A stretch of DNA of 64,000 nucleotides from an uncultured Bacteroidales bacterium (GCA_963838215.1 CAWIQG010000005.1:83310-147309); one strand, 5' to 3'; numbered from the stretch's first letter, positions 29,284 to 54,836 are shown. Program-made: numbers and translations. The notes: generated by a model not told the origin, from the sequence alone.

Positions 29284-29294
29284 TTATTTTTGCG

Positions 29295-30033: not shown

Positions 30034-32001
30034 CTAGTTCACAGGGATACATATTCTAAATCCAATTGCATCCCCTGTTGATCCACTAATATTTGTGTTA
30101 GATCTGAATTTATTCCTTAAAGATTCTTTTGAACAAGTGAAATCTCCACCTCTGATCACTTTGGTGCTTCCATTTTCAGGGCCTTTGGGATTTTTAAGAG
30201 GCGATCTTTTGTAATAAGCTTTATCATAGAAATCGCTGCACCATTCCCAAACATTGCCTGATAAATCATAGATTCCAAATGCATTTGGCTTTTTTGTTCC
30301 AACATTATTAAGCCTTCCTGAAGAATTTTCCTTATACCAGGCTATTTCATTAAGGTCATCTGAACCACTATAAATATATTTATCACTTCCTGAAGCAGAA
30401 TATTCCCATTCAGCTTCAGTTGGGAGCCTTCCAAAGAATGTTTTACAAAACATGTTTGCCCCATTCCACGTGACTCCCGTAACAGGTAAATTCTCAGAAT
30501 CAACTCCAATTTTGAAAATACCATTGTCATAAATGATATTTTTATTCTTTGATAAATCAATGACTGATATATTATTTATTATTCCTGAAGCCGAACAATC
30601 AAATGCGTTCAAAAAGATAACAAATAACTTGTTGGTAATTTCTGTTTTACCTAGTAGAAATGAGTTTAGGCTGACCTGATGCTGCGGTTTTTCATCATCA
30701 TTACCATTATCATCACCCATGCCGAAAGTTCCTGCAGGAATGGATACAAGGTTTGGAGTAATGTAATTACTGGAAAGCTTAAGAATACATTCTTTCATCA
30801 TTTGCTTTGATTCCTGCTTTTTGGGGTCCAAAGTGACTGCCTCAGTTAAATACTTATGTGCTGTAATGTAGTCGTTCCCATTAAAAGCTTCTTTAGCTTT
30901 AAGAAATAGTTGATTCGTCTCACCAGCTGAATTCTTATTTGAATAGATGAAAAAGTACCATCCTGCCGCAATTAACAATAATACTATACCAAGAATCAAA
31001 AATATACTGAGTTTATTCTTTTGTTTTTTGTTTGTAGGATTATTATTTTCAGATGTACGGGTTTTAATCTTCTTCCCCCGTTTTTCCTGCGCTGTACCGG
31101 AAATACCTGTCTCATGATCCTTCTGACCTTCTTCCTGAATTCTTCTACGATTTATTTCAGAAAGGGTTATTATCGAGTTGAGGACATCATAAATGATAGT
31201 TCCGTTCTGTGGTCTTTCGTCAATATTTTTTTTCAGAGTACTCAGAATAAGACTCTTTAATTCTTTAGAAACTTTTATATCATCGGGAATTGGTGGTGGA
31301 GGTTCATGAACTACTTTATAAAGTGTGGCTGTAGGATTATCGGAATAAAAAGGAACTCTTCCTGTCATTGCTTCATACATAACGACTCCAAAACTATAAA
31401 TATCACTTCTTCCATCTATCACTTCACCCCTTGCTTGTTCTGGACTCATAAATTCAGCTGTCCCAAGAATTGCTCCACTCAAAGTCATTGTCTTATCCTG
31501 ATGAAAAGCAATACCAAAATCCATTAGTACTGGTCTGTCATTTGAAGAAATAAAAATATTTGAACTTTTTATGTCTCTGTGGATAAGTCCATTTTGGTGA
31601 AGGTGATTCAAAGCATCTGCAATCGGAGCCATATATTTGACTATTTTAAGCTCATCCAGCCGACCCTCCTGCCTTATTATTTCTGATAAATTTTTCCCCT
31701 GAAGATATTCCATTGATATATAATGCAATCCATCTTCTGTTCCAAAATCATGTATTGTTACAATATTTGGATGTGAGAGTGTTGCTAAATCTCTTGCTTC
31801 CCTATAAAACCTGGATATAGATTCATTATCATTTACCAGATTCGGGTGAATAATCTTCAGTGCAATTTCCCTTCCCAGATTAATCTGGGTTGCCTTATAA
31901 ACTGTCGCCATACCTCCAGCACCAATTCTCTTGGTAATCTCAAATTTTCCTCCTAAGATTTTTCCAATTAACGGGTCGTTTTCTAAATGATTATCAAGCA
32001 T
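30034..32001 (-). CDS. Transmembrane Hanks-type Ser/Thr protein kinase with extracytoplasmic FGE-sulfatase (SUMF1-like) domain
   Basis: 655 aa. Kinase motifs GAGGMATVY, ALKI, HRDIKSSNIF, DFGIA and SPEQ lie in aa 1-285. A Lys/Arg-rich linker follows, then TM LSIFLILGIVLLLIAAGWYFFIY. The C-terminal FGE-type domain reads IPAGTFGMGDD...KPQHQV...VTGVTWNGA...LPTEAEWEY...GNVWEWCSD...RGG...GFRI. Confidence 0.88.
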   Translation of the reverse strand: MLDNHLENDPLIGKILGGKFEITKRIGAGGMATVYKATQINLGREIALKIIHPNLVNDNESISRFYREARDLATLSHPNIVTIHDFGTEDGLHYISMEYLQGKNLSEIIRQEGRLDELKIVKYMAPIADALNHLHQNGLIHRDIKSSNIFISSNDRPVLMDFGIAFHQDKTMTLSGAILGTAEFMSPEQARGEVIDGRSDIYSFGVVMYEAMTGRVPFYSDNPTATLYKVVHEPPPPIPDDIKVSKELKSLILSTLKKNIDERPQNGTIIYDVLNSIITLSEINRRRIQEEGQKDHETGISGTAQEKRGKKIKTRTSENNNPTNKKQKNKLSIFLILGIVLLLIAAGWYFFIYSNKNSAGETNQLFLKAKEAFNGNDYITAHKYLTEAVTLDPKKQESKQMMKECILKLSSNYITPNLVSIPAGTFGMGDDNGNDDEKPQHQVSLNSFLLGKTEITNKLFVIFLNAFDCSASGIINNISVIDLSKNKNIIYDNGIFKIGVDSENLPVTGVTWNGANMFCKTFFGRLPTEAEWEYSASGSDKYIYSGSDDLNEIAWYKENSSGRLNNVGTKKPNAFGIYDLSGNVWEWCSDFYDKAYYKRSPLKNPKGPENGSTKVIRGGDFTCSKESLRNKFRSNTNISGSTGDAIGFRICIPVN

Positions 32002-32005
32002 GGTT

Positions 32006-32233
32006 TTACTGTTTAATGAGGTTAGTATTCAATGAATCCAAATATTTTTTACCAAGGCTCCGTTCCATCACCAGCAAAGCAAAAATACGCAAAATTCTGT
32101 TAAACTTGTCAGGTTTCTTTATCAAGTTGGCTGAGGCTATGGAAGTACCCAGGGAAATGATAACTTTTGATAAATTGAAAAGTAAATCCTTCAAAAGACA
32201 TATTATTATTTCGGCAATTATTTTCATTTGCAT
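32006..32233 (-). CDS. Possible small protein (75 aa) between PP2C and kinase genes
   Basis: The ORF fills an otherwise anomalous 222-nt gap in a tightly packed gene train. It overlaps the PP2C stop by 10 nt and ends 4 nt before the kinase ATG. There is no motif, and an antisense ORF of similar length exists (32016..32255 +). Confidence 0.3.
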   Translation of the reverse strand: MQMKIIAEIIICLLKDLLFNLSKVIISLGTSIASANLIKKPDKFNRILRIFALLVMERSLGKKYLDSLNTNLIKQ

Positions 32234-33404
32234 AATTTTTCAGTGGGCGTATTAACTGTTAAAGCAATATTCTTCTTAGAAAATGCATGCCATTTAAAAT
32301 CAGAACTCAAAGGCGTTTTCTGAACTGAAATCACAAATGTACTGCTATCTCCAGAAGATGATTTGGCAACAACTGGAGAAACATTATACTCACTCTTCTG
32401 AAATATCAGAAACAAAACTGTACAGAGAATCAATATCACAATAAATATCATGGCTGGGAAAAAGAAATTTCTGATCTTCCTGATTTTGTTGATAGACCGG
32501 ACCTTTCCGAATGAAATACATAACGCTGATATATTGTCATTCGATCCCTTTTCAAATGCGTTATTAATCAGATTTTTAGCAAATGTTTCAGGATCAGGAC
32601 CATTTTGATAGATCTGAAAAAAATCCAGCTCATCTTTTTTAACTGATTTGTCTGTAATTAATCCGTCCGAACAAAGCAGGAATATTTTTGGAGTTCGCAA
32701 ACTAAGATAGTCCCGATGCTCCGGATAAATGTCAGGTTTATCATTTCCTCCACTTACTGATCGTGTAATAATATGAGAAAACTGATTAAAATAATCCGTA
32801 TTTATTTTCTCCCCTGGTTGTTCTTTAATACTTCTTCAATATATGAATGATCTTTTGTAATTTGTTCGACGCCGTGTGAATCAATTTTATATAACCTGCT
32901 GTCACCAATATTTCCCCACACGTAAGAACCATTATGAATTAACAAGACAACAAGTGTCGTGCCCATACCTAAATGATCTATGTCTTTTTCAACTTCTTCT
33001 CTTACAGCGACTTGTGTTTTCAGGAAACCTTCTTCAAGAACAGATTTAAGCTGCGTCGGAAGAATTTGTTCATGAAATGATTCTTTTACATGTGATAAGA
33101 AAGTATTGACAGCCAGTTGGCTGGCAATCTCTCCGTGTTCATACCCTCCCATTCCGTCGGCTACAATAAAAAGATAGGTTCTGTCATCTATCTTCTCACA
33201 AAGAAATGAATCTTCATTATTTGATCGACGTCCTGTAATTGACTCCCCGTAATAAGTAATATTTTCTTCCAATAATGTGCTTATTAATATTGAATTCGTT
33301 AACCTTCCATTAATGTTAATAATTTTTAAATATGGTCGCGTCCGTAAATAAGATCTCCAGGAGTATTGATCAATATTGTTTTTGAAGTTTGATTGAAAAC
33401 CCAC
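32224..33404 (-). pseudogene. PP2C-family Ser/Thr phosphatase with C-terminal TM segment, split by a one-base frameshift (pseudogene or sequencing indel)
   Basis: Track ORFs 32802..33404 and 32224..32700 are the two halves. The first carries GRRSNNEDSF, VADGMGGYEHGEIAS, GTT and GDSRLY. The second carries LLCSDGL, GSNDNISALCISF, then TM FFFPAMIFIVILILCTVLFLIF. The -1 frame reads through the junction as GEKINTDYFNQFSHIITRSVSGGNDKPDIYPEHRDYLSLRTPKIF. One extra G in the GGGG run (plus-strand CCCC ~32811-32814) restores a ~393-aa protein. Confidence 0.85.
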
Positions 33405-34855
33405 TCAACGATAGCCCATATTACCAGAATTGCAGAAAGTGCATAACCATTAACCAGGTGGAATATCTTTAAATCGCGAAAAAAGATTATAACAATCAGG
33501 ATGTCAAAAATGGTGGCACCGGTATATGCTATTATAAGAGCTCTCAGATAAAATCTACGTACTATACCTTTATAAATACTTTGCAGGTCACTGTTCGATA
33601 AACCAAAGGCTTTAAAGGTTCCAAGGTTGGTTTTAATTTTATCGAGGTGCGTTTTTAAGAGATTAAAAATAAACAATCCTACACTTATAATACTGAATAT
33701 AAGCAGCATGGTTGCCATGGTCGTTGTAAGAATACTAATAGCAATAAAGTTCTTCTTGTCCTGAACTTTTGACATTTCAACCACAAGTTCATGTTCTTCG
33801 AAGAGAAATTTTTCGAATAATTCTACTCTTGTCAGGGATTTAAATGACACTGAAATTTTATCGTATGCAATGTTTATTTCAGGATTCTGGGGAAAAGGAT
33901 AACGGTAATACCTGTACAGTTTATTGGCAAAACCATTTAGTCCCGGTGACTTCAGTATTTTATTATAGATATTATCAAGCGAATCAATGTTCTCCGGTTG
34001 AGGGGAAAAAGAAATATCAAGTTGATAAGCATCAATATATGTATCGGAATTCAGAGATAAATCGACTAATGGGTCCTTTCCTTTTAAAACAGAGTCAGAT
34101 TTAAGGAACTTTTCTATACGTTTCTTTACTTCTAAAACCTCGTTTTTATCTTTAGTCTGTACAAAAATTGTTAAACTCTTGTAATCTTCTATGTTAAAAG
34201 GGTTATCCTGGCCAATGATCAACATTTTAAAGAAGAAAGGAGTGTACGCAAAATCAGAAACACCCGGTAATTCTTTTACCACTGCAATTATTGGAACAGG
34301 AACCTGATAATTACCGGAGTCTTTTTTCAGCATCTGCATTTGCACGAAAAGATCGCTCATTGAATAGCCAAAATCAGATAGGAATTTCTGCGTAACAATA
34401 ATGCCGCAATCTCTGTTGTCATAAAATTTGTTTCTTCCGACAATCTTATTTTTCTCTCCAAGGACCTGTTTCAGGATAGGGCTTCCTGGTTCAATAGATT
34501 GACCCTTAGCCGGTCTGAATTCATTTTTTTTAATATTATAAAATGTCCTGGGATACTCCACAACAGCGAGAACAGTATCATATAAAAAAGCTGACTTATA
34601 GATTTCGCTATTAAGATCCGTTTTAATAGATTCAACTTCTTTTGATTTGCTGTATGGAACATCTACATCAAGGTTTTGAACAAACGGATCATTCATTCTC
34701 AGACTGAGATATTCTATTCCTCCTTTCGATATTGCAATAGCCATAAATGTCCCAAAAAGAATACCTGTTAGGATTAAAAGGTTTTTTCTTTTTTTCCCGT
34801 TTATTTCCTCTATTTCTCTTTTGGTGAAAAGTTTCTTGAAATCTTTATTAATCAT
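33326..34855 (-). CDS. FtsX/MacB-type ABC permease (4 TM, large extracytoplasmic domain)
   Basis: 509 aa. One N-terminal TM (LLILTGILFGTFMAIAI), an extracytoplasmic region of ~300 aa, then three C-terminal TMs with an FtsX-like loop (KAFGLSNSDLQSIY). 2-nt gap from the ATPase gene. Confidence 0.75.
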   Translation of the reverse strand: MINKDFKKLFTKREIEEINGKKRKNLLILTGILFGTFMAIAISKGGIEYLSLRMNDPFVQNLDVDVPYSKSKEVESIKTDLNSEIYKSAFLYDTVLAVVEYPRTFYNIKKNEFRPAKGQSIEPGSPILKQVLGEKNKIVGRNKFYDNRDCGIIVTQKFLSDFGYSMSDLFVQMQMLKKDSGNYQVPVPIIAVVKELPGVSDFAYTPFFFKMLIIGQDNPFNIEDYKSLTIFVQTKDKNEVLEVKKRIEKFLKSDSVLKGKDPLVDLSLNSDTYIDAYQLDISFSPQPENIDSLDNIYNKILKSPGLNGFANKLYRYYRYPFPQNPEINIAYDKISVSFKSLTRVELFEKFLFEEHELVVEMSKVQDKKNFIAISILTTTMATMLLIFSIISVGLFIFNLLKTHLDKIKTNLGTFKAFGLSNSDLQSIYKGIVRRFYLRALIIAYTGATIFDILIVIIFFRDLKIFHLVNGYALSAILVIWAIVEWVFNQTSKTILINTPGDLIYGRDHI

Positions 34856-34857
34856 TC

Positions 34858-35676
34858 CTATTTAAGTTTTTTATGTAACAACTCCTTTAAATCCAGAATC
34901 TCATTTCCCTTAAAGTCAATCCATTTTCTTTCCTCATTTGTTCCAGTGGACCTGAAAATATTTTCCTCAAAGATTTCCCCATAGCTGCCATTATCTTTAA
35001 CCATCATTATTATCTGATCTGCAAATGCAAGCGAAAGATCAATATTATGAGACACAATTATTGAAGTTCTGTTCTTTTCCCCTAATGCCTTTTGTATTAC
35101 TCTCATTAGTTCAACAGAATTATTCTCGTCCAGATTACCAGTCGGTTCATCGCCGAAAAGGACAGAAAACTCAGGAGTTATTGCTCTTACAAATGCAAGT
35201 CTTTGTCGCTGACCACCAGACAATTCAGTCACATGGGCATCCCTTTTTATTTCCTGCAAACCTACCTGTTCCATAGCTTTCTCAACTTTCGATAACGCCT
35301 GTTCAATCTTTGCACCCTGAATCAGCTGGGGGATGCAGGCATTCTCATAGGCAGTGAAGTTATGCATGAGGTTTGTGTTCTGGAATATAAAACTCATGTG
35401 AGAGTTACGTACATCTGAAAGGAGCTTTTCTTCAGTCCACAAATCAGATAAATTATAATGCTTTTCTATTTGAGGCATGAATCTTATTTCTCCTTCAGCG
35501 ATTGTATTGTTCATTAATCCCAGGGTTTCAAGAATAGTGCTTTTACCGGCACCTGATTTTCCAATCATGACAACAAGCTGGCCGCCCATAATCACTAGAT
35601 GTTTAATCTTCAGTACCGGATTGATACCATCATACGAACAGACCACATTATTTAATTCATAAATAGCTTGGGGCAT
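34858..35676 (-). CDS. ABC ATPase of the MacB/LolD/FtsE type
   Basis: 272 aa. Walker A GKSGAGKST, signature LSGGQRQR, and Walker B with the family-typical GDEPTGNLD. Confidence 0.88.
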   Translation of the reverse strand: MPQAIYELNNVVCSYDGINPVLKIKHLVIMGGQLVVMIGKSGAGKSTILETLGLMNNTIAEGEIRFMPQIEKHYNLSDLWTEEKLLSDVRNSHMSFIFQNTNLMHNFTAYENACIPQLIQGAKIEQALSKVEKAMEQVGLQEIKRDAHVTELSGGQRQRLAFVRAITPEFSVLFGDEPTGNLDENNSVELMRVIQKALGEKNRTSIIVSHNIDLSLAFADQIIMMVKDNGSYGEIFEENIFRSTGTNEERKWIDFKGNEILDLKELLHKKLK

Positions 35677-35678
35677 AA

Positions 35679-37550
35679 TTATTTAAATTTATTATAAACT
35701 TCATACTTAATATTTGGATTCAGGGTATTCATCTTTCTGCAAAAGTTTTGAAGTTCTGATTCCCTGGATGTGTTGTTTGGATTGTTAAAATAGAGATAAA
35801 CCAAAATCTGGGTATTACTGGTTGCAAGCATCTGATTGACTCTTTCAATGAATTCCTTCAGGAAAAAAGACCTGCCTTCCAGTTCGGACCTATAAAAGTA
35901 ATCAGAAACATCAAAATGGATAGTAATCTTGTTTGTTACAACTTTGATTCCTCCCATAAGTTTGTTTTCCAGCCTGAGTTTATCATTAAACAGATCGGGA
36001 AGCAATGAACTGGAATTTCTCATCTGCCCGGTGATCTGCTCAAATCCTGTTTCTCCATTGGTTATTATCGGGTCAACCCCTGAACTATAGTAAATCATAT
36101 CGCCAACTTCGTTCGATTGATTTTCTGCCGTCCATACCTGTTTAAGATTCATATATAATCTTTTTATCTCAGCCTGAAGCTGATCATTACTTTTTTCTTC
36201 AAGAGGGGCGCTATGATCGATATAAAATACGCTATACTCTTTATAGGTATCACCTTTGATCGAAATTTTATTTGGTTTAAAGAGAGTTAATTTAGCTAGA
36301 ATATCCAAAGAGAGCATATTCTGAGGCAACCAATAATAACTGAGACCCGAAAAGAAATGAAATTTCTCCACCTCTTTTTCTGAAATCAGTTTTTCATAAT
36401 TATCCCCAAACGTTTTAAAATATGAATCAAAGTCAATATCCTTGATTTCACTAACAGGTGTCGTCTCCATACCTGAATACTCTGAAAAATCCAGACCAAG
36501 AGTATATCCCCATAATTCAGCAACATTCATCGATCTTATCTTCAGATTGTTTGTGTCGATATTCCGGCTTACAAAATATCCGAATAATTCAGATCTGAGT
36601 AATTCTTTTACAGGAGAGTCTTTTAATATCTTTGCAAAATCTTTAACCGCTGCAAACTGAATGTCATCCATAAAATTTGCTTTCAGAAACCTTGCATCTG
36701 CTAAATTCAGATATTGAGTATCCACTGCCAGAGCCAGTGGATTCAAAATTTTTGCTGTTCTCTGGTTATCATTTAAATAGAAAAAACCTAAATGGGCATT
36801 GTGCTTATAAATTTTCATTGCAGCTCTTGCAGTGTCATTAGCACTTGTTCTTCCCCTTTCTGAAAAAGTATAGAGCTTCTGTCCTTCTTCAACTTTCTTC
36901 CAATCAGGAACATACGCCCTGTTGCTGTATATGATGGTTATATCTGATAATTTCACCCAGAAAACATCATTCCTGGTCAGATTTTCATGAACAATATCGG
37001 TTACACTAAGCAGTAATGCATCAGTTTCCTGTTTTAAAACAAAATAAGCATCAAATACACTATCTGCAATTTGTTTATTTAACCCGGGCATATTTGACGG
37101 AAGATTTCTGTTATCCGGATTTTTCTTTATAAGAGCCCTAACAATTACCTTGTCAACACTGAGATTCCTCATTCCCAGAACCAGGTCCTGCTTTTTGACC
37201 CAACCTACTTCAATTGCACTTGCAGTAAATCTATAATTATTAGTTAGCAGTGCAGTTCCTCTTTTCTTAACAAGGCGGACTGCATCTTCAGTTTCATCCC
37301 ATACAGCAAAATACTGAAGAAATTTTTCAGTACCTTTCTGGTTCAGACACTCTTTGTCGCTGTAAACAGGTATATTGTCTTTTGCTGCCATAACATACCA
37401 CACATTTTCGCCTCTTTCATTTGACACAGAAGTGCTCATACCCGGATAAGGCGCTTCATACTTAAGAGGCATTTTTGGGAAAAAATCTCCTTCCTGACCA
37501 TACAAAAGTAATGGTAAAAGAATTCCCAATATTATAAGAATCTTTTTCAT
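35679..37550 (-). CDS. Exported protein, vWA-less paralogue of the two upstream vWA proteins
   Basis: Start taken at internal MKKILIILGILLPLLLYGQ (signal peptide). It shares the N-terminal module (P-M/L-x-Y-x-x-P, W-V...GWVKK...) and the internal SYYWLPQNML motif with 37561..39915 and 39927..42283. It has no DxTxS MIDAS motif and carries a unique ~185-aa C-terminal extension. Confidence 0.7.
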   Translation of the reverse strand: MKKILIILGILLPLLLYGQEGDFFPKMPLKYEAPYPGMSTSVSNERGENVWYVMAAKDNIPVYSDKECLNQKGTEKFLQYFAVWDETEDAVRLVKKRGTALLTNNYRFTASAIEVGWVKKQDLVLGMRNLSVDKVIVRALIKKNPDNRNLPSNMPGLNKQIADSVFDAYFVLKQETDALLLSVTDIVHENLTRNDVFWVKLSDITIIYSNRAYVPDWKKVEEGQKLYTFSERGRTSANDTARAAMKIYKHNAHLGFFYLNDNQRTAKILNPLALAVDTQYLNLADARFLKANFMDDIQFAAVKDFAKILKDSPVKELLRSELFGYFVSRNIDTNNLKIRSMNVAELWGYTLGLDFSEYSGMETTPVSEIKDIDFDSYFKTFGDNYEKLISEKEVEKFHFFSGLSYYWLPQNMLSLDILAKLTLFKPNKISIKGDTYKEYSVFYIDHSAPLEEKSNDQLQAEIKRLYMNLKQVWTAENQSNEVGDMIYYSSGVDPIITNGETGFEQITGQMRNSSSLLPDLFNDKLRLENKLMGGIKVVTNKITIHFDVSDYFYRSELEGRSFFLKEFIERVNQMLATSNTQILVYLYFNNPNNTSRESELQNFCRKMNTLNPNIKYEVYNKFK

Positions 37551-37560
37551 TGATATGATT

Positions 37561-39915: not shown

Positions 39916-39926
39916 ATTTAAATTTG

Positions 39927-42283: not shown

Positions 42284-42290
42284 TAATTCG

Positions 42291-43217: not shown

Positions 43218-43228
43218 AATTTATAATT

Positions 43229-44665: not shown

Positions 44666-44666
44666 C

Positions 44667-47600: not shown

Positions 47601-50600
47601 ATTTTCAACGGTAAAGCTCCCGGTGATAGATAATGTGGTAATGTCAGCAGTTGTTTCTGATACACTTGCCAGGGAGTAGTTTGCTGCATCTGCCCCGGAA
47701 AGGGAAGCTCCTGTTAAAGTGACAGTTTTTGTGGTTCCCACATCTTTGGTGTCGAACGTTGATGTTCCCCCGGTAAGTGTTACATCATCCGGTGAAATGA
47801 CACCGTCGAGAGAACGCGAAAGTTCACTTGTACCGGTGTTACCATCATATATCTTATTTTCAACGGTAACGCTTCCGGTGATAGATAATGTGGTAATGTC
47901 AGCAGTTGTTTCTGATACACTTGCCAGGGAGTAGTCTGCTGCATCTGCACCGGAAAGGGAGGCTCCTGTTAAAGTGACAGTTTTTGAGGTTCCCACATCT
48001 TTTGTGTCGAACGTTGATGTTCCACCGGTAAGTGTTACATCATCCGGTGAAATGACACCGTCGAGAGAACGCGAAAGTTCACTTGTACCGGTGTTACCAT
48101 CATATATCTTATTTTCAACGGTAAAGCTCCCGGTGATAGATAATGCGGTAATGTCAGCAGTTGTTTCTGATACACTTGCCAGGGAGTAGTCTGCTGCATC
48201 TGCACCGGAAAGAGAGGCTCCTGTTAAAGTGACAGTTTTTGAGGTTCCCACATCTTTGGTGTCGAACGTTGATGTTCCCCCGGTAAGTGTTACATCATCC
48301 GGTGAAATGACACCGTTGAGAGAACGTGAAAGTTCACTTGTACCGGTGTTACCATCATATACCTTATTGCCAACGGTAATGCTTCCGGTGATAGACAATG
48401 GGTAAATGTCAGCAGTTGTTGTTGGCGCTCCTGATAACAATAAGGTATAATTCCCTGCCCTGGCGCCTGAGAGTGATAAGTCAGAAAGGCTGACTGTTTT
48501 ACCTGTACCAGTATCTTTAGTATCAAACTCTGCTATATTTGCAAGGGTTACATCATCACTTCCTACTTTTCCGGCAAGGGTAAGGTTGTTTGTTATTATA
48601 GTTGCAGCTATTTCACGGTCATAAATTTTATTGGCAGCGGCGAACGAGCCTGTAACAGTGAGAGTATCTTTGGTCACGATGAAGTTGGCGGGATTGTATG
48701 TAAAGTCGTAGTTTTCAGCTACACCACCGGAAACGGTAATTGAATATGTTCCGACAGAAGTTGTATCGGTAACAGTTGTGCTGGCCGTTGGCTTGGTTGT
48801 CAAAACGGATTCGTCATCACCGTTCTGCCATCCACTATACGTGAAGGTCAACTCCGGATTAACCTGGCCATATACTTTAGTCTGAGCATTTGCGGTAACT
48901 ATCAGGGTCGGCCTGGTTACCGTGAAGTCTCCGGCTACATAGGTAAAATCATAGTTGTTGGCAATGCCTCCGGCAACGGTAATTGCTCCGGAATAAACCC
49001 CGACCGGAGTTGCATCATCAACGATAGTGCTTGCTGTCGGAAGAGTTGTCAACACAGATTCATTCTCACTGTTTACCCATCCACTGTATCCTAAAGTCAA
49101 TTCCGGGTTGGGGTCTCCGAATACTTTAGTCTGAGGATCTGCTGTAACGAATAACATCGCTTTGGTCACCGTGAAGTCAGCAGCCACATAAGTGAAAGCA
49201 TAGTTTTCATCCACTCCTCCGGAAACAGTGATTGCTCCGGTATAAACTCCAACCGGAGTTGTAAGGTCAACGGTCGTACCAGCAGTCGGAGGTGTTGTTA
49301 ATACTGATTCATCCTCACTGTTTACCCATCCGCTGTAAGAGAAGGTCAACGTTGGATCGGCTGCACCATATATTTTGGTCAGAGTATCGGCGTTAACTGT
49401 GAGGGTTGCTTTAGCTACCATTATATCTCTTGCAACATATCCAATTGTATAATTGCTGGCTGTAAAAGTTCCTCCTGTCGCAGCTGATGCAATCACTGAC
49501 CCGGTATATGTTCCTGCAGCATCTGTTGCAGCAGCGCCGGTGCCATAAGTAATGGTAACCGTACCAATAGTCTCACTGTTCTGCAAGCCAACAGATGTAA
49601 AGGCTGTTGAACCTGATCCACCTGTCAGTGTTTCACCATAGGTTTTTAATGCATTATTGGCCGTGACTGTCAATGTTGCTGTACCTACAATGATATCTCC
49701 AACCGTATAGCTAATTGTATAATTGCCGGCTGTAAACGTCCCTCCTGTTGCAGCTGATGCTGTTACCTGACCGGTATATGTTCCTACTGCATCTGTTGCA
49801 GATGCACCCGTACCATAAGCAATAGTAACCGTACTAATAGTCTCACCATTCTGCAAGCCAACAGATGTAAAAGCTGTAGAACCTGCACCTCCTGTTATGA
49901 GCGTACCATAGGTCTTATTTACATTATTGGCTGTAATCGTCAAGGTTACTGTACCTACTATAATATTCCCAGCTGTATAGCCAATTGTATAATTACCCGC
50001 TGTAAATGTCCCTCCAGTCGCAGCTGATGCAGTCACCTGGCCCGTATATGTTCCTACTGCTGCTGTTGCTGCAGAACCGGTGCTATAAGCAATAGTAACC
50101 GTACCAATAGTCTCACCATTCTGCAAGCCAACAGAGGTAAAGGCTGTAGAACCCGTACCTCCTGTTATGAGTGTACCATAAGTCTTATTTACATTACTGG
50201 CTGTGATCGTTAAGGTTGCTTTATTTACGGTAAACGAACCATTCAAATAGGTAATGTTGTAGTTTGTCAGACCAGTGCCTGCTGCTGCACTAGGTACGAT
50301 TGTATAGGGAGAACCAGCCACACCTGCTGTCGCGGCTGCTCCACCACTGGTAAGTGTCACACTGGTTACGGCATCTGAATTAACCAGACCAGAGGTAGTA
50401 AATTCTGTACCAAGGAAGGTAACAGCTGTACCGTAAGTCTTGGACTGGTTATTGGCTGTGATTGTCAAGGTCGCTTTAGCTACTATAATATTCCCTACTG
50501 TATAGCTAATTGAATAATTGCTGGCAGTAAACGTTCCTCCTGTTGCAGCTGATGCAGTCACCTGACCGGTATATGTTCCCACGGCATCTGTTGCAGCAGC

Positions 50601-53600
50601 GCCAGTTCCATAAGCAATAGTAACCGTACCAATAGTCTCACCATTCTGCAAGCCAACAGATGTAAAAGCTGTCGAACCTGTACCTCCTGTTATGAGTGTA
50701 CCATAAGTCTTATTTGCATTACTGGTTGTGATCGTCAAGGTTGCTGTACCTACTATAATATTCCCTGCCGTATAGCTAATTGAATAATTGCTTGCTGTAA
50801 ACGTCCCTCCTGTCGCAGCTGATGCAGTCACTGATCCTGTATATGTTCCTACTGCTGCTGTTGCTGCAAAACCGGTGCTATATGCTATTGTAACTGTACC
50901 AATAGTCTCACCATTCTGCAAGCCAACAGATGTAAAAGCTGTAGAACCTGCACCTCCTGTTATGAGCGTACCATAGGTCTTATTTACATTATTGGCTGTG
51001 ATCGTTAAGGTAGCTTTACCTACTATAATATTCCCAGCTGTGTAGCCAATTGAATAATTGCTTGCTGTAAACGTTCCTCCTGTTGCAGCTGATGCAGTCA
51101 CCGATCCTGTATATGTTCCCACTGCTGCTGTTGCTGCAGCACCGGTGCCATAAACAATAGTAACCGTACCAATAGTCTCACCATTCTGCAAGCCAACAGA
51201 TGTAAAAGCTGTTGAACCAGCTCCACTTGTCAGTATTGATCCATAGGTCTTATTTACATTATTGGCCGTGATTGTCAAGGTTGCTTTAGCTACTATAATA
51301 TTCCCTACTGTATAGCTAATCGAATAATTGCTGGCAGTAAACGTTCCTCCTGTCGCAACTGATGCTGTCACTGATCCTGTATATGTTCCCACGGCATCTG
51401 TTTTAGCAGCACCCGTACCATAAGCAATAGTAACCGTACCAATAGTCTCACCATTCTGCAAGCCAACAGATGTAAAAGCTGTTGAACCTGCACCTCCTGT
51501 TATGAGTGTACCATAAGTCTTATTTACATTACTGGCTGTGATCGTTAAGGTTGCTGTACCTACTATAATATTCCCAGCTGTATAGCTAATTGTATAATTG
51601 CCCGCTGTAAACGTCCCTCCTGTTGCAGCTGATGCAGTTACCTGACCAGTATATGTTCCCACGGCATCTGTTTTAGCAGCACCCGTACCATAAACAATAG
51701 TAACCGTACCAATAGTCTCACCATTCTGCAAGCCAACAGATGTAAAAGCTGTCGAACCGGTACCTCCTGTTATGAGTGTACCATAGGTCTTATTTACATT
51801 ATTGGCCGTGACTGTCAAGGGTGCTTTAGCTACTATAATATTCCCAACTGTATAGCTAGTTGTATAATTGCCAACTGAAAACGTTCCTCCTGTTGCAGCT
51901 GATGCAGTCACCGATCCTGTATATGTTCCCACTGCTGCTGTTGCTGCAGAACCGGTGCTATAAACAATAGTAACCGTACCTATAGTCTCACCATTCTGCA
52001 AGCCAACAGATGTAAAAGCTGTCGAACCGGTACCTCCTGTTATGAGTGTACCATAGGTCTTATTTACATTATTCGCCGTGATTGTCAAGGGTGCTTTAGC
52101 TACTATAATATTCCCAACTGTATAGCTAGTTGTATAATTGCTGGCAGTAAACGTTCCTCCTGTTGCAGCTGATGCAGTTACCTGACCGGTATATGTTCCC
52201 ACAGCATCTGTTTTAGCAGCACCCGTACCATAAGCAATAGTAACCGTACCAATAGTCTCACCATTCTGCAAGCCAACAGATGTAAAAGCTGTCGAACCTG
52301 CACCTCCTGTTATGAGCGTACCATAGGTCTTATTTACATTATTGGCTGTAATCGTCAAGGTTACTGTACCTACTATAATATTCCCAGCTGTATAGCCAAT
52401 TGTATAATTACCCGCTGTAAATGTCCCTCCAGTCGCAGCTGATGCAGTCACCTGACCCGTATATGTTCCTACTGCTGCTGTTGCTGCAGAACCGGTGCTA
52501 TAAGCAATAGTAACCGTACCTATAGTCTCACCATTCTGCAAGCCAACAGAGGTAAAGGCTGTAGAACCCGTACCTCCTGTTATGAGTGTACCATAAGTCT
52601 TATTTACATTATTGGCTGTGATCGTTAAGGTTGCTTTATTTACGGTAAACGAACCATTCAAATAGGTAATGTTGTAGTTTGTCAGACCAGTGCCTGCTGC
52701 TGCACTAGGTACGATTGTATAGGGAGAACCAGCCACACCTGCGGTCGCGGCTGCTCCACCACTGGTAAGTGTCACACTGGTTACGGCATCTGAATTAACC
52801 AGACCAGAGGTAGTAAATTCTGTACCCACGAAGGTTAAAGCTGTACCGTAAGTCTTGGACTGGTTATTGGCTGTGATTGTCAAGGCTTTCTTGCTGACTG
52901 TCCCGTTGTAAACATTATAAGTGACAGTATAGTTACTTTCAAGGAAACCTCCTGTACCTGTCGCCAATGATGGTGTGACAACATAAGCTGCTCCTGCTGT
53001 AGTGGTGGCTGAAAGACCTGCTGCATCAGGGGTTAGTGTAACGCTGGTCACTGTCTCTCCTGTTATCTCTCCGCTATGAGTGAAGTTCGTTGTACTGGTT
53101 CCTGTAGTTAAAGCTGTTCCATAAACCTTTGTCGGCCCTGTGGCCGTAACCGTCAAGGCTTTCTTGCTGACTGTCCCGTTGTAAACATTATAAGTGACAG
53201 TATAGTTGCTTTCAAGGAAACCTCCTGTACCTGTTGCTAATGATGGTGTGACAACATAGGCTGCTCCTGCTGCAGTAGTGGCTGAAAGACCTGCTGCATT
53301 TGGGGTTAGCGTAACACTGGTTACTGTCTCACCTGTTATCTCTCCGCTGTGCGTGAAATTCGTGGTGCTGGTTCCTGTAGTTAAAGCTGTTCCATAAACC
53401 TTTGTCGGCCCTGTGGCCGTAACCGTCAAGGCTTTCTTGCTGACTGTTCCATTGTAAACATTATAAGTGACAGTATAATTACTTTCAAGGAAACCTCCTG
53501 TACCTGTTGCTAATGATGGTGTGACAACATAGGCTGCTCCTGCTGCAGTGGTGGCTGAAAGACCTGCTGCATTTGGGGTTAGTGTAACACTGGTTACTGT

Positions 53601-54836
53601 CTCACCTGTTATCTCTCCACTGTGCGTGAAGTTCGTTGTACTGGTTCCTGTAGTTAAAGCTGTTCCATAAACCTTTGTCGGCCCTGTGGCCGTAACTGTC
53701 AAGGCTTTCTTGCTGACTGTCCCGTTGTAAACACTATAAGTGACAGTATAATTACTTTCAAGGAAACCTCCTGTACCTGTTGCTAATGATGGTGTGACAA
53801 CATAGGCTGCTCCTGCTGCAGTAGTGGCTGAAAGACCTGCTGCATCAGGAGTTAGTGTAACGCTGGTCACTGTCTCACCTGTTATCTCTCCGCTATGAGT
53901 GAAGTTCGTGGTACTGGTTCCTGTAGTTAAAGCTGTTCCATAAACCTTTGTCGGCCCTGTGGCCGTAACCGTCAAGGCTTTCTTGCTGACTGTCCCGTTG
54001 TAAACATTATAAGTGACAGTATAGTTACTTTCAAGGAAACCTCCTGTACCTGTCGCCAACGATGGTGTGACAACATAGGCTGCTCCTGCTGCAGTGGTGG
54101 CTGAAAGACCTGCTGCATCAGGGGTTAGTGTAACGCTGGTCACTGTCTCACCTGTTATCTCTCCGCTATGAGTGAAGTTCGTGGTACTGGTCCCTGTAGT
54201 TAAGGCTGTTCCATAAACCTTTGTCGGCCCTGTGGCCGTAACCGTCAAGGCTTTCTTGCTGACTGTCCCGTTGTAAGCAATATAAGTTACGGTATAGTTA
54301 CTTTCAAGGAAACCTCCTGTACCTGTCGCCAATGATGGTGTGACAACAAAGGCTGCTCCTGCTGCAGTAGTGGCTGAAAGACCTGCTGAATTCGGGGTTA
54401 GAGTTACACTTGTTACTGTCTCTCCTGTTATCTCTCCGCTGTGCGTGAAGTTCGTGGTACTGGTTCCTGTAGTTAAAGCTGTTCCATAAACCTTTGTCGG
54501 CCCTGTGGCCGTTATCGTAAGAGTCTCTTTATCTATAGTGAGGCTCTGATTTTTCTGTGGAGCCTGGTCCCAGGTTCCATCACCTGCCTGATCGGCATAA
54601 ATGGTAACAGTACCGGCAGCAACTATATGTACTTTATTGCTAACAATGGTTGCTATTTCAATATTGCTGCTCGAATAGGTCACCGTCAGACCCGACGAAG
54701 CAGTTGCACCCGGGTCGAAATCGGCATCGCCATAAGTTCTATCAGAAAGTACAGGAAAAGTAATAGTCTGACTTGATTGTGCGAATCCTAAAAGGGTCAG
54801 CAACAAAAAACATGCACCAATAGATAATCTTTTCAT
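44667..54836 (-). CDS. Giant (3389 aa) repetitive surface protein/adhesin with MBG-like and YDG-like repeat arrays and T9SS type-A C-terminal sorting domain
   Basis: Single uninterrupted ORF with signal peptide MKRLSIGACFLLLTLLGFAQS. It contains 6 x 91-aa units (ATGPTKVYGTALTTG...), 11 x 90-aa units (NKTYGTLITGG...GLQNGETIG...), 3 canonical MBG-like units (KIYGAADPTLTFSYSGWVNSEDESVL), 9 x 85-aa YDG units (NKIYDGNTGT...DDVTL...FDTKDVG...) and Ig-like modules. The last ~85 aa (VAPNPNNGQFTV...GIYFIDI...KIIVNSN) fits the T9SS type-A CTD. Confidence 0.9.
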   Translation of the reverse strand: MKRLSIGACFLLLTLLGFAQSSQTITFPVLSDRTYGDADFDPGATASSGLTVTYSSSNIEIATIVSNKVHIVAAGTVTIYADQAGDGTWDQAPQKNQSLTIDKETLTITATGPTKVYGTALTTGTSTTNFTHSGEITGETVTSVTLTPNSAGLSATTAAGAAFVVTPSLATGTGGFLESNYTVTYIAYNGTVSKKALTVTATGPTKVYGTALTTGTSTTNFTHSGEITGETVTSVTLTPDAAGLSATTAAGAAYVVTPSLATGTGGFLESNYTVTYNVYNGTVSKKALTVTATGPTKVYGTALTTGTSTTNFTHSGEITGETVTSVTLTPDAAGLSATTAAGAAYVVTPSLATGTGGFLESNYTVTYSVYNGTVSKKALTVTATGPTKVYGTALTTGTSTTNFTHSGEITGETVTSVTLTPNAAGLSATTAAGAAYVVTPSLATGTGGFLESNYTVTYNVYNGTVSKKALTVTATGPTKVYGTALTTGTSTTNFTHSGEITGETVTSVTLTPNAAGLSATTAAGAAYVVTPSLATGTGGFLESNYTVTYNVYNGTVSKKALTVTATGPTKVYGTALTTGTSTTNFTHSGEITGETVTSVTLTPDAAGLSATTTAGAAYVVTPSLATGTGGFLESNYTVTYNVYNGTVSKKALTITANNQSKTYGTALTFVGTEFTTSGLVNSDAVTSVTLTSGGAAATAGVAGSPYTIVPSAAAGTGLTNYNITYLNGSFTVNKATLTITANNVNKTYGTLITGGTGSTAFTSVGLQNGETIGTVTIAYSTGSAATAAVGTYTGQVTASAATGGTFTAGNYTIGYTAGNIIVGTVTLTITANNVNKTYGTLITGGAGSTAFTSVGLQNGETIGTVTIAYGTGAAKTDAVGTYTGQVTASAATGGTFTASNYTTSYTVGNIIVAKAPLTITANNVNKTYGTLITGGTGSTAFTSVGLQNGETIGTVTIVYSTGSAATAAVGTYTGSVTASAATGGTFSVGNYTTSYTVGNIIVAKAPLTVTANNVNKTYGTLITGGTGSTAFTSVGLQNGETIGTVTIVYGTGAAKTDAVGTYTGQVTASAATGGTFTAGNYTISYTAGNIIVGTATLTITASNVNKTYGTLITGGAGSTAFTSVGLQNGETIGTVTIAYGTGAAKTDAVGTYTGSVTASVATGGTFTASNYSISYTVGNIIVAKATLTITANNVNKTYGSILTSGAGSTAFTSVGLQNGETIGTVTIVYGTGAAATAAVGTYTGSVTASAATGGTFTASNYSIGYTAGNIIVGKATLTITANNVNKTYGTLITGGAGSTAFTSVGLQNGETIGTVTIAYSTGFAATAAVGTYTGSVTASAATGGTFTASNYSISYTAGNIIVGTATLTITTSNANKTYGTLITGGTGSTAFTSVGLQNGETIGTVTIAYGTGAAATDAVGTYTGQVTASAATGGTFTASNYSISYTVGNIIVAKATLTITANNQSKTYGTAVTFLGTEFTTSGLVNSDAVTSVTLTSGGAAATAGVAGSPYTIVPSAAAGTGLTNYNITYLNGSFTVNKATLTITASNVNKTYGTLITGGTGSTAFTSVGLQNGETIGTVTIAYSTGSAATAAVGTYTGQVTASAATGGTFTAGNYTIGYTAGNIIVGTVTLTITANNVNKTYGTLITGGAGSTAFTSVGLQNGETISTVTIAYGTGASATDAVGTYTGQVTASAATGGTFTAGNYTISYTVGDIIVGTATLTVTANNALKTYGETLTGGSGSTAFTSVGLQNSETIGTVTITYGTGAAATDAAGTYTGSVIASAATGGTFTASNYTIGYVARDIMVAKATLTVNADTLTKIYGAADPTLTFSYSGWVNSEDESVLTTPPTAGTTVDLTTPVGVYTGAITVSGGVDENYAFTYVAADFTVTKAMLFVTADPQTKVFGDPNPELTLGYSGWVNSENESVLTTLPTASTIVDDATPVGVYSGAITVAGGIANNYDFTYVAGDFTVTRPTLIVTANAQTKVYGQVNPELTFTYSGWQNGDDESVLTTKPTASTTVTDTTSVGTYSITVSGGVAENYDFTYNPANFIVTKDTLTVTGSFAAANKIYDREIAATIITNNLTLAGKVGSDDVTLANIAEFDTKDTGTGKTVSLSDLSLSGARAGNYTLLLSGAPTTTADIYPLSITGSITVGNKVYDGNTGTSELSRSLNGVISPDDVTLTGGTSTFDTKDVGTSKTVTLTGASLSGADAADYSLASVSETTADITALSITGSFTVENKIYDGNTGTSELSRSLDGVISPDDVTLTGGTSTFDTKDVGTSKTVTLTGASLSGADAADYSLASVSETTADITTLSITGSVTVENKIYDGNTGTSELSRSLDGVISPDDVTLTGGTSTFDTKDVGTTKTVTLTGASLSGADAANYSLASVSETTADITTLSITGSFTVENKIYDGNTSAIVHSYFLDGVISPDDVTLTGGTSTFDTKDVGTSKTVTLTGASLSGADAANYSLASVSETTADITTLSITGSFTVENKIYDGNTGTSELSRSLDGVISPDDVTLTGGTSTFDTKDVGTSKTVTLIGASLSGADAADYYLASVSATTADIIPLSITGSVTVDNKIYDGNTSAIVHSYFLDGVISPDDVTLTGVTATFDTKDVGTSKTVTLTGSLSGADATDYYLASAPTTTADITTLSITGSFTVENKIYDGNTGTSELSRSLDGVISPDDVTLTGGTSTFDTKDVGTSKTVTLTGASLSGADAADYYLASVSATTADITPLSITGSFIVDNKIYDGNTGTIELSRSLDGVISPDDVTLAGGTSTFDTKDVGTTKTVTLTGASLSGADAADYYLASVSTTTADIIPKDLTITATGPAKTYGTALTAGTSTTNFTHSGEISGEIVTSVTLTPDAAGLSATAPAGTAYVVTPSMVTGTGGFLESNYAVTYLPYEDVVAKKPLTIIATGPTKEYGTALTAGTNTTYFTTNSEEVPGELVTSVTLTPDAAGLSAATDAGTAFVVTPSMATGTGGFLASNYDINYNNGTFTVTKANLRLSIHNINKFQGDELPDMEAYVVTSDLKFPGDINTLDFSLNLTTNCTASSPPIIPPAPDYWIDFPVAPVDNNYSISYTTGILIVYPKIEITSQPTSKESCEYSNIGFSVSSTGVFQKYEWQYRENTTDDWKDITNPPFLKHNGENTNILSLDSILNTFNGYQFSCKIVSKFLEDSLVSVNNQVLRGDSVTTDITSSDVPVLTVDKSPPPDAVLKKGNNILICTNADSVKYQWGDASGNISGATGQYFIPTDLSDLTKYWVITTNKNECTTKVYYEQGGVIIPVSPGLNLPVTVAPNPNNGQFTVTVNGLTASSSIQVFVRDYFGKTYPNTVQKMTSGTVLTVQSTDINQGTKLKPGIYFIDIIQGNMRAIAKIIVNSN
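46365..48665 (-). repeat. Intragenic tandem repeat, 255-bp unit x 9 (YDG-like units)
   Basis: Antisense shadow ORFs start at 46447, 46702, 46954, 47209, 47719 and 47974, which gives a 252-255-bp periodicity. The shadows at 47209 and 47974 differ at 1 of 71 residues. Confidence 0.9.
49410..52634 (-). repeat. Intragenic tandem repeat, 270-bp unit x 8 + 3, interrupted by one 255-bp QSKTYG unit (~50220-50474)
   Basis: The 'ggtcttatttacatt...' motif recurs at 270-bp spacing (e.g. ~49911 and ~50181). The block QSKTYG unit plus the next two units is itself duplicated at a 2415-bp offset (ttatttacgg at 50221 and ~52636). Confidence 0.85.
52890..54527 (-). repeat. Intragenic tandem repeat, 273-bp unit x 6
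   Basis: The same motif (gctttcttgctgactgt...) recurs at 273-bp spacing, e.g. ~53158 and ~53431. The protein units are near-identical. Confidence 0.85.

Follow-up and report, generated by a model that had tools for sequence, protein, structure and literature searches.

A Bacteroidota gene cluster with TssR- and TssP-like proteins, a type VII ABC transporter and a giant surface adhesin

In the Bacteroidota type VI secretion system (T6SS-iii) the membrane complex consists of TssN, TssQ, TssO and TssP together with TssR; TssR is a lipoprotein with a von Willebrand factor A (vWA) domain, TssP contains two PKD domains, and the periplasmic domain of TssR from B. fragilis pulls down TssP (PMC10781749). 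The genes of T6SS-iii are often spread across several loci, and Bongiovanni et al. 2024 sought the membrane-complex genes outside T6SS loci as indications of an ancestral system, finding none with a complete complex (PMC10781749). Here we analyse a gene cluster between positions 54836 and 30034 on the minus strand of a 64,000-nucleotide stretch of DNA from an uncultured Bacteroidales bacterium (GCA_963838215.1, CAWIQG010000005.1:83310-147309; termed the window, with positions counted from its first letter). A previous inspection of this DNA by itself, in the following called the sequence-only reading, had described the cluster as an operon of eleven genes encoding an adhesin, vWA proteins, an ATP-binding cassette (ABC) transporter and a kinase/phosphatase pair, and had not recognized the combination as a described system. 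The latter statement agrees with our literature searches on TssR-like proteins outside T6SS and on the combination of type IX secretion system (T9SS), MacB and vWA, which gave nothing relevant; the cluster is real, widely conserved in Bacteroidota and apparently undescribed.

Several described systems share components with this cluster. In type VII ABC transporters such as MacB, LolCDE and FtsEX, cytoplasmic ATP hydrolysis moves a periplasmic domain which acts on a periplasmic partner. T9SS adhesin operons with their own outer-membrane partner are known, e.g. sprB with sprF in the sprCDBF operon of Flavobacterium johnsoniae. The TerY-P triad of Anantharaman, Iyer and Aravind (2012) reportedly combines the vWA protein TerY with a PP2C phosphatase and a Ser/Thr kinase. 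In the threonine-phosphorylation pathway of Pseudomonas, TagR activates the kinase PpkA together with the ABC pair TagS/TagT and the lipoprotein TagQ (PMC13584744), and PpkA has an extracytoplasmic vWA domain (PMC3224232). NTP-dependent conflict systems include vWA-MoxR/iSTAND ternary systems, and domains of the FGE type are regarded as ligand-binding in this context (Kaur et al. 2020, PMC7159879).

Gene order and conservation of the cluster

The genes of the cluster are given below in their order on the minus strand.

44667-54836, minus strand: giant surface adhesin of 3389 amino acids with signal peptide, MBG_2 repeats (16), YDG repeats (9) and, at the C-terminus, a T9SS type A sorting domain of marginal score
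43229-44665, minus strand: exported protein of 478 amino acids with an N-terminal α/β domain of ca. 190 residues and a small C-terminal outer-membrane β-barrel
42291-43217, minus strand: PKD lipoprotein of 308 amino acids with lipobox LNSC, two tandem PKD domains and a C-terminal domain of ca. 100 residues
39927-42283, minus strand: TssR-like vWA paralogue 2, 785 amino acids after repair of a frameshift near 40866-40890, with TssR N, TssR_VWA and TssR_C matches
37561-39915, minus strand: TssR-like vWA protein (paralogue 1) of 784 amino acids with signal peptidase I (SPI)-type signal peptide and intact metal-ion-dependent adhesion site (MIDAS)
35679-37550, minus strand: exported vWA-less TssR-like protein of 623 amino acids with TssR N-barrel, TssR_C and an extra C-terminal region
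34858-35676, minus strand: ABC ATPase of 272 amino acids, LolD/MacB/FtsE/BceA class (ABC_tran, 80 bits)
33326-34855, minus strand: type VII ABC permease of 509 amino acids with four transmembrane helices (24-44, 369-402, ca. 437-460 and 464-483)
32224-33404, minus strand: membrane-anchored PP2C, 349 amino acids when repaired and read from TTG 33272, with one transmembrane helix (266-296) and an outside tail of ca. 55 residues
32006-32233, minus strand: open reading frame (ORF) of 75 amino acids with one hydrophobic segment, a candidate gene only
30034-32001, minus strand: Hanks-type Ser/Thr kinase with kinase domain (20-265), transmembrane helix (328-354) and extracytoplasmic FGE-sulfatase domain of C-type-lectin fold (416-650)

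The 784-residue protein has only 33 relatives in an index of 5.8 billion proteins. A pattern scan with one genome per species yielded 28 loci (designated by L numbers), which derive from Bacteroidota metagenome-assembled genomes (MAGs) save the unclassified bin L028; L035 in this set is a spurious alphaproteobacterial vWA match. The window proteins and a reference set of T6SS-iii proteins were mapped onto all loci. In 22 distinct loci, from Cyclobacteriaceae, Flammeovirgaceae, Flavobacteriales, Bacteroidales, Chitinophagaceae, Cytophagaceae and Paludibacter MAGs, a TssR-like gene is directly followed by the genes of the ABC ATPase and permease family, and the synteny check of vWA protein and permease suggested with the sequence-only reading thus gave a positive answer. 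Where the sequence extends far enough, the usual order upstream is a large protein, a barrel protein of ca. 470-550 residues, in many cases a PKD protein, in some a small TssR-like protein or one without vWA, and TssR; the large first protein has a T9SS tail wherever tested. The order of T9SS cargo, OMP_b-brl_2 barrel, PKD protein, TssR and ABC-FtsX fusion is held in Flavobacteriales and Chitinophagaceae loci at less than 30% TssR identity and with quite different cargo domains, and the cargo of one sister locus contains SprB repeats. Look-ups anchored on the permease found a TssR gene upstream in all three cases and a Por_Secre_tail protein in two, the third (L036) having an Ig_7 protein at this place. 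Such a recurrence of one gene order in numerous distant loci shows that the arrangement exceeds chance.

At the level of single junctions the picture is largely the one given before. The ORF listing reproduces the unbroken run in which the minus strand holds every ORF from 54836 to 30034, and the junctions, from 54836 downward gaps of 1, 11, 7, 11, 10, 2 and 2 nt followed by a 79-nt overlap, a 10-nt overlap and a 4-nt gap, are all obtained provided that internal start codons are used, e.g. in paralogue 2 (42283) and the vWA-less protein (37550). The 79-nt overlap between permease and PP2C hangs on a GTG start at 33404; the sole alternative, TTG 33272, chosen by the gene caller in L003, gives a 53-nt gap. 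The count of eleven genes holds only when two single-base frameshifts are bridged, as the raw sequence contains 13 ORF pieces. The sequence-only reading overlooked these breaks near 40888 and at 32820 and tacitly bridged them, listing paralogue 2 and PP2C as one ORF each. In the raw sequence paralogue 2 is divided into 40880-42283 and 39927-40865, and PP2C into 32802-33404 and 32224-32700. The unrepaired halves of paralogue 2 align to the matching halves of the 784-residue paralogue 1 with 48% and 42% identity; addition of one base at ca. 40888 (CCAACCTGG to CCAAACCTGG) creates the 785-residue ORF, which is 45% identical to paralogue 1 over the full length. One A added at 32820 restores PP2C to 349 residues.

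The origin of the two breaks can be approached with L003, a 137-kb contig of another ENA assembly, which is 99.95% identical to the window across 22.3 kb. In L003 the PP2C is whole at 349 residues and paralogue 2 is broken by an indel pattern unlike that of the window. All three indel differences between the two sequences (sites 40883-40927 and 32813-32822) lie at most 5 nt from the centre of a CCWGG site, although positions within 8 nt of such a centre make up 3.1% of the sequence (P ca. 3e-5). The breaks in paralogue 2 and PP2C are therefore most likely base-calling errors at methylated CCWGG sites, since the indels sit at these sites and differ between two near-identical assemblies; for the same reason real pseudogenization of the two genes is unlikely. 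As an observation in its own right, the CCWGG-sited indels suggest systematic methylation-linked base-calling errors in long-read metagenome assemblies of this kind.

Spacing and synteny suggest a single co-translated operon. A promoter and terminator scan of 29500-45500, which does not cover Bacteroidota promoters, gave the same counts as shuffled sequence.

Protein families, folds and export signals

The 784-residue protein matches the Pfam families TssR_VWA (100.6 bits) and TssR_C (77.6 bits, cut-off 25.7), while TssR_M (24.1) and TssR N (16.6) stay a little under cut-off; its identity to an annotated Chryseobacterium TssR is 20%. Paralogue 2 scores 27.6 bits with TssR N. The vWA-less protein, which matches TssR N (30.4 bits) and TssR_C (24.9 bits) and aligns with both ends of the 784-residue protein in BLASTP, is kept in the clade of the window (L001, L002, L008, L011, L022, L025 and L034). 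By these domain matches the vWA proteins of the window are distant members of the TssR family. The sequence-only reading had correctly described them as exported with N-terminal signal peptides; it had treated them as generic vWA proteins, which does not hold in view of TssR_VWA and TssR_C, and had missed both the TssR domains and the TssP-like position of the PKD neighbour. In NCBIfam no model matched the TssR-like, PKD, barrel, permease or small-ORF proteins.

Two features separate these proteins from the TssR of T6SS loci. The MIDAS motif (D-x-T-x-S ... D), formed by D340-x-T342-x-S344 ... D449 in the 784-residue protein, is preserved in the majority of TssR-like proteins with ABC linkage, and its T6SS-linked versions are degenerate, which suggests a metal-dependent ligand contact that TssR of T6SS may have lost. 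Moreover, the N-termini of T6SS-linked TssR proteins end in a lipobox (..ASC, ..TSC, ..YSC), whereas those of the TssR-like proteins of the window and its clade show an SPI-type site with Q behind it and lack a conserved Cys. Q directly follows the predicted cleavage site in all five exported non-lipoproteins of the cluster, in line with the Bacteroidetes "Q-rule". In a neighbour-joining tree of TssR proteins ABC-linked and T6SS-linked clades are interleaved; the tree is unrooted and unbootstrapped and was not used for ancestry.

The PKD lipoprotein (PKD_4, 48 bits in Pfam) aligns over both PKD domains with a T6SS TssP in BLASTP, and hhalign against TssP covers the N-terminal anchor and both PKD domains with a probability of 99.6% (E 7.6e-24), PKD being a common domain. 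The anchor is a lipobox in the PKD protein and a transmembrane helix in TssP. The order PKD protein, then TssR is common to the window and to T6SS-iii loci. Taken together, the vWA and PKD proteins appear to be homologues of TssR and TssP, or at the least their equivalents in architecture.

The transporter was assigned to the MacB/FtsX type by the sequence-only reading, and family matches and fold search place it in the MacB/LolC/FtsX (type VII) class. LolD, FtsE, DevA and MacB are the top NCBIfam matches of the ATPase, and BceA, LolD, MacB, YtrE and YbbA its top PDB matches. The permease has a periplasmic domain of ca. 320 residues between the first and second transmembrane helices. It gave no match in a PDB sequence search and scores 20.7 bits with FtsX, under the Pfam cut-off, which a fused ATPase-permease homologue clears (26.6 vs 25.5); such fusions, MacB-like proteins of 800-850 residues, are found in L018, L024, L028, L031 and L033. 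An AF2 model of the permease based on 51 homologues (pLDDT 86) retrieved only type VII ABC transporters among the top ca. 30 Foldseek matches in the PDB (LolCDE, MacB, YtrEF, YbbAP, HrtBA, BceAB), with FtsEX lower in the list. Among 1.84 billion representatives, a profile of the permease family detects 665 clusters (public data clustered at 50% identity) with E ≤ 1e-30; these include many fused forms, and the named members are all MAG "hypothetical proteins".

The repeats of the adhesin are recognized with high scores (MBG_2 462 bits, YDG 425 bits). Its sorting domain at the extreme C-terminus (residues 3306-3386) reaches 23.6 bits with Por_Secre_tail (cut-off 27) and 22.6 with TIGR04183 (cut-off 23), the latter over the whole profile length; the orthologues in L001, L002, L022 and L025 are above the T9SS-tail cut-off, which is also passed by the analogous first genes of L018, L031, L037 and L038. 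The region 46000-54000 within the adhesin gene has a GC content of 44-46% compared to 34-38% in the flanks, and contains near-identical tandem units at a spacing of ca. 255 nt with 91-94% identity between copies. Because of these near-identical units the assembled length of the gene may be unreliable. Elsewhere in the window, at 5389-6894 on the plus strand, a 501-residue fn3 protein carries a CHU_C (type B) T9SS sorting domain, and both T9SS tail types are therefore encoded within the window.

The barrel gene directly follows the adhesin gene, an arrangement kept in related loci. A Pfam scan of the 478-residue protein gave no family match; its homologues match OMP_b-brl_2. The AF2 model (pLDDT 76) retrieved OmpA, OmpT, Pla, OpcA, Ail and Dot/Icm porins in Foldseek, with E values down to 4e-7.

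The kinase protein matches Pkinase (180 bits) and FGE-sulfatase (169 bits), its FGE part also matching GldK/PorK, EgtB and GldJ, and the phosphatase matches PP2C_2 (55 bits) on its N-terminal half and Stp1/IreP-like proteins (168 bits). Both proteins have one transmembrane helix, with the FGE domain and the PP2C tail predicted outside, as the sequence-only reading had it. That reading had also counted the pair as part of the module, which does not apply to the core: a Ser/Thr kinase (STK) and/or PP2C occurs in six of the 22 ABC-linked loci, with both in four, and other modules are found elsewhere. The pair is not essential to the core function, because it is missing from most clusters; kinase and PP2C are, as judged by this distribution, an optional add-on outside the conserved core. 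The 75-residue ORF gave no family match and has a homologue among the related loci only in the near-identical L003.

STK and/or PP2C genes recur on the same strand in L008, L019, L022, L037 and L038. L008 and L019 have the order permease, FHA protein, PP2C, TPR or hydrolase-vWA protein and then STK, with an α/β-hydrolase-vWA protein between PP2C and kinase in L019; L022 has the STK and/or PP2C upstream of the adhesin, L037 a PP2C alone and L038 an STK-PKD fusion. The proteins between permease and PP2C in the distant sister loci L008 (16610-17563) and L019 (16193-17212) comprise 317-339 residues with a C-terminal FHA domain and complete an FHA-PP2C-STK set like TagH/TagG/TagE of T6SS regulation. 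Elsewhere the place of the PP2C and kinase of the window is occupied by modules of Tubulin_2 GTPase and trypsin-like protease. In L023 (14488-19486) and L026 (12717-17616) the permease is followed by an uncharacterized protein of ca. 420 residues, an 830-residue Tubulin_2 GTPase and a trypsin-like protease, and in L036 (11584-15242) by an uncharacterized 130-residue protein, then Tubulin_2 and trypsin. L038 has a TPR + CHAT accessory module. On the complete chromosome of a Cyclobacteriaceae MAG (L002:16583-22409) the genes after the permease encode iSTAND, a MoxR-like AAA_5 ATPase and a 1776-residue protein with WG_beta_rep and the TssR N, vWA and C domains; this would be a vWA-MoxR ternary-type system on a TssR scaffold.

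Directly upstream of the adhesin, on the same strand and separated by a 368-nt gap, two cytoplasmic SpoIIE-type (PPM) phosphatases are encoded (55205-57067 and 57145-58578, minus strand), one with RyR and one with an N-terminal TIR domain; a TPR-SpoIIE protein is found near the sister cluster of L018. The SpoIIE pair may also regulate the cluster, or may form a TIR signalling pair unrelated to it. On the other side, 20504-29900 holds genes of common metabolic and cofactor functions (among them those for citrate lyase subunits, a nickel insertion protein of LarC type, PP-loop and AIR-carboxylase-like proteins, and WbqC) and no mobile-element or phage genes. The LarC-type, PP-loop and AIR-carboxylase-like genes are a possible lar cluster.

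Comparison with described systems

In sequence the cluster is related to the T6SS-iii membrane complex. The vWA proteins carry TssR-specific Pfam domains, a protein with two PKD domains lies directly upstream of the TssR-like genes in the manner of TssP, and both systems are limited to Bacteroidota. In contrast, the TssR-like proteins of the window are SPI-exported instead of being signal peptidase II (SPII) lipoproteins and have an intact instead of a degenerate MIDAS, their partner in the inner membrane is a type VII ABC transporter, and T9SS cargo and barrel mostly stand at the start of the cluster. Genuine T6SS-iii loci (L004, L007, L017, L021) have the order TssO, TssP (PKD), TssR, then VgrG and no ABC pair. 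Phmmer searches with TssN and TssO of L007 gave nothing significant in the window or the ABC-linked loci, and a 163-residue ORF beside TssO in L007, possibly TssQ (which was not searched by name), gave no match. The Pfam scan of the 64-kb window, which covered ORFs of at least 100 residues apart from short ORFs nested in other genes, contained no T6SS core gene (TssB/C, Hcp, VgrG, TssE/F/G/K, ClpV), and phmmer with TssE/F/G, VgrG and the 384-residue ORF between tssG and tssN of L007 (possibly TssK) found no match in the window. T6SS core genes are also absent from the 22 ABC-linked loci within up to ±10 kb where the contig allows, whereas each of the clearly T6SS-linked TssR loci carries at least one. 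An identity with the T6SS-iii membrane complex is ruled out by the lack of TssN/TssO matches and core genes and by TssR-like proteins that are not lipoproteins; the best reading is that the cluster is related to this complex and separate from it. As a partial match with P- and R-like components only, it would not have counted under the criteria of Bongiovanni et al.

The closest functional analogue appears to be the threonine-phosphorylation pathway (TagQRST-PpkA-PppA-Fha1 of the P. aeruginosa H1-T6SS) rather than the TerY triad. The likeness, drawn from domain content and COG assignments, comprises an outer-membrane lipoprotein, a periplasmic FGE domain, a LolE/LolD-like ABC pair, a Hanks kinase and a PP2C, the membrane Hanks kinase with periplasmic sensor and its PP2C antagonist both being present in the window. 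COG1262 is presumably the FGE/SUMF1 family. TagR belongs to COG1262, the COG assignments of TagR, TagS and TagT being those of PMC13584744. The Pseudomonas kinase bears the vWA domain and TagR is free, whereas in the window the kinase itself includes the FGE-sulfatase domain (169 bits) and it is the vWA proteins that stand free. Further differences are the lack of a T6SS in the locus, the optional kinase/PP2C, the TssR type of vWA and the other host phylum. The Pfam scan found no FHA domain in the window ORFs, in contrast to L008 and L019, and with neither an FHA protein nor a T6SS in the window membership in this pathway is not shown. The TerY-P triad shares vWA, PP2C and Hanks kinase genes in one cluster. 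However, the window vWA proteins are exported TssR-family members and TerY is cytoplasmic, and kinase and PP2C of the window are membrane-anchored with outside domains. The claim of the sequence-only reading that the cluster is not the cytoplasmic TerY triad is thus borne out; the triad is ruled out by the signal peptides and TssR domains and by the absence of PP2C/STK from most homologous clusters.

In its working principle the cluster seems most like a type VII ABC machine with new periplasmic and outer-membrane partners. With MacAB-TolC, LolCDE, FtsEX-EnvC, BceAB-BceS and YbbAP it shares the ATPase class, the permease with four transmembrane helices and large periplasmic domain, the fused MacB-like forms in sister loci and the presumed action on a periplasmic partner. 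It differs in having no MacA-type adaptor, TolC, LolA/B or EnvC and, as constant partner, a TssR-like vWA protein; Pfam scans detected no HlyD/MFP or OEP family in the cluster or the window, and a MacAB-TolC pump is ruled out, adaptor and duct being absent. The sprCDBF operon likewise combines the gene of a giant repetitive T9SS adhesin with that of an outer-membrane β-barrel. The tail in the window is, however, of type A and not type B, the barrel is OmpA/OmpT-like and not identified as PorP/SprF, and TssR-like proteins and ABC motor are extra. vWA-MoxR/iSTAND systems resemble the cluster in combining vWA with NTPases and variable effector or sensor domains including FGE-type ones, and iSTAND and AAA_5 adjoin the cluster in L002; the window has neither MoxR nor iSTAND, its NTPase is an ABC transporter and its vWA is periplasmic.

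Proposed function and alternative explanations

Starting from what is observed, namely the order of the genes, the assigned families and folds, the export signals and a core conserved across lineages, we infer a physical complex, a direction of information flow and a biological role along the following lines. We give about an even chance to the proposal that the cluster encodes an ATP-driven envelope-spanning module which handles or monitors the surface adhesin, with optional phospho-control. The core would consist, in order, of a T9SS-exported surface protein, a small outer-membrane barrel, a PKD lipoprotein resembling TssP, between one and three TssR-like proteins in the periplasm (two here with intact MIDAS vWA) and the ABC ATPase and permease. 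ATP hydrolysis in the cytoplasm would move the 320-residue periplasmic domain of the permease, as in MacB, LolCDE and FtsEX, and this domain might act on the adjacent TssR-like proteins; a TssR-like protein is the likeliest partner of the ABC pair because it is its invariant neighbour. By analogy with the TssR-TssP contact of T6SS-iii, the TssR-like proteins would bind the PKD lipoprotein, which in turn might link to the outer-membrane barrel that sits with the adhesin, completing a path from the inner membrane to the surface. In this way cytoplasmic energy and signalling could be coupled to adhesin assembly, anchoring or conformation, or the state of the adhesin could be reported inward. As an add-on in the window, the membrane kinase with its periplasmic FGE/lectin-type domain and the membrane PP2C would provide reversible phospho-control, and the swap of vWA and FGE relative to Pseudomonas leads us to predict a contact between FGE and vWA domains. 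BceAB-BceS is a type VII ABC transporter that talks to a membrane kinase, and BceAB is among the fold matches of the permease in the PDB. A precedent for this kind of communication is also given by TagST and PpkA (PMC13584744).

Several points weigh against this proposal. The T9SS tail of the window adhesin is slightly below both curated cut-offs (TIGR04183 and PF18962), and the fold matches of the barrel carry low TM-scores of 0.2-0.5. The similarity between PKD protein and TssP rests on the widespread PKD domain and leaves the C-terminal domain unaligned, and the TssR-like proteins of the window are not lipoproteins like the TssR of T6SS, so that the analogy to TssR-TssP possibly does not carry over. 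Most homologous clusters lack kinase and PP2C; in L001, for instance, the cluster stops at the permease and groEL follows on the opposite strand. The conflict-type accessory modules (Tubulin_2 + trypsin, iSTAND + MoxR) fit sensing or defence better than the handling of an adhesin, and all carriers found are uncultured MAGs.

Since the TssR family is otherwise known only from T6SS-iii, whose genes are often scattered over loci (PMC10781749), and since the domain inventory matches TagQRST-PpkA-PppA(-Fha) with FHA in L008 and L019, the cluster might alternatively be an accessory or regulatory module, similar to threonine phosphorylation, for a T6SS-iii elsewhere in the genome: the TssP/TssR-like proteins and the ABC pair would sense envelope damage or contact, and kinase and PP2C would switch on the T6SS in trans. 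We regard this as unlikely, as none of the 22 ABC-linked loci has a T6SS core gene within up to ±10 kb where the contig allows while all clear T6SS-linked TssR loci have at least one, no T6SS gene was found in the 64-kb window, kinase and PP2C are missing from most loci, MIDAS and signal-peptide type are unlike those of T6SS TssR, and the cluster mostly begins with T9SS cargo and barrel, two components that play no part in T6SS. A conflict or defence system that senses at the surface, in which the variable T9SS protein serves invaders or competitors as receptor or decoy, TssR and ABC proteins relay the signal inward and variable cytoplasmic modules respond (STK/PP2C, TIR- and RyR-SpoIIE phosphatases, Tubulin_2 + trypsin, iSTAND + MoxR, CHAT), is improbable to the same degree. 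It would account for the swapping of modules (Tubulin_2 + trypsin in L023/L026/L036, iSTAND + AAA_5 + giant TssR in L002, TPR + CHAT in L038), whose domains are typical of NTP-dependent conflict systems (PMC7159879), for the TIR + SpoIIE and RyR + SpoIIE proteins just upstream in the window and for the high variability of the first gene in size and domains, as expected under diversifying pressure. However, PADLOC models match no core protein, many loci (L001, L011, L025, L034) have no effector-like gene beside the core, and no phage or mobile-element genes flank the cluster in the window. The matches of the kinase to PD-T4-6/mad6 and of the ATPase in PADLOC reflect generic domain homology and are not evidence for defence.

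A role in dedicated biogenesis or sorting, with a Lol-like ABC transporter that extracts or delivers its own PKD lipoprotein, or loads barrel and adhesin, once in the course of assembly and has no lasting mechanical or signalling function, appears slightly less probable still. LolD as top family match of the ATPase, LolCDE with bound lipoprotein as top fold match of the permease, the clear lipobox of the PKD protein and the precedent of an adhesin gene accompanied by that of its own outer-membrane partner (sprB with sprF) all point in this direction; against it, what invariably adjoins the ABC pair is the TssR-like protein, a non-lipoprotein, and not the PKD lipoprotein, the PKD gene was undetected in several loci (L037, L038), and intact MIDAS and recurring kinase, phosphatase and FHA proteins suggest regulated interactions. 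Finally, a chance juxtaposition of unrelated same-strand operons for adhesin, ABC transporter and kinase/phosphatase is highly improbable. For the core it is contradicted by the same gene order in 22 distinct loci of several taxonomic orders, at protein identities down to ca. 25%, and by the tiny or overlapping junctions; it gains some room from the uninformative promoter and terminator scans and from the kinase/PP2C block, which is not conserved in most loci.

Beyond the envelope-spanning module that we favour, a more far-reaching interpretation, which we put forward only tentatively and think rather doubtful, is that the cluster stands on its own as a sister of the outer half of the T6SS-iii membrane complex, or possibly as its ancestor, and thereby represents an unrecognised class of Bacteroidota surface machines with plug-in signalling modules. 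A MacB-type motor would act via the MIDAS-vWA TssR and the TssP-like PKD protein on the outer-membrane barrel and operate or monitor the T9SS-delivered adhesin, and Hanks kinase/PP2C/FHA, tubulin-like GTPase + protease or iSTAND/MoxR would be plugged in. TssR and TssP are now regarded as specific to the T6SS of Bacteroidota, and where the T6SS-iii membrane complex came from is a question posed explicitly (PMC10781749); here and in no fewer than 21 relatives of this locus, a TssR/TssP-like pair stands beside a MacB-type ABC transporter, an outer-membrane barrel and a T9SS surface protein. If true, the sister-class interpretation would answer the question of origin left by Bongiovanni et al. 2024. 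Should the proteins assemble into one complex, this would constitute a new coupling of cytoplasmic ATP and Ser/Thr phosphorylation to a surface adhesin in Bacteroidota, and would join T6SS parts, T9SS cargo and a type VII ABC transporter, which are usually studied apart. The cluster also allows a test of whether the FGE-vWA contact behind the post-translational activation of the Pseudomonas T6SS is a general sensing principle.

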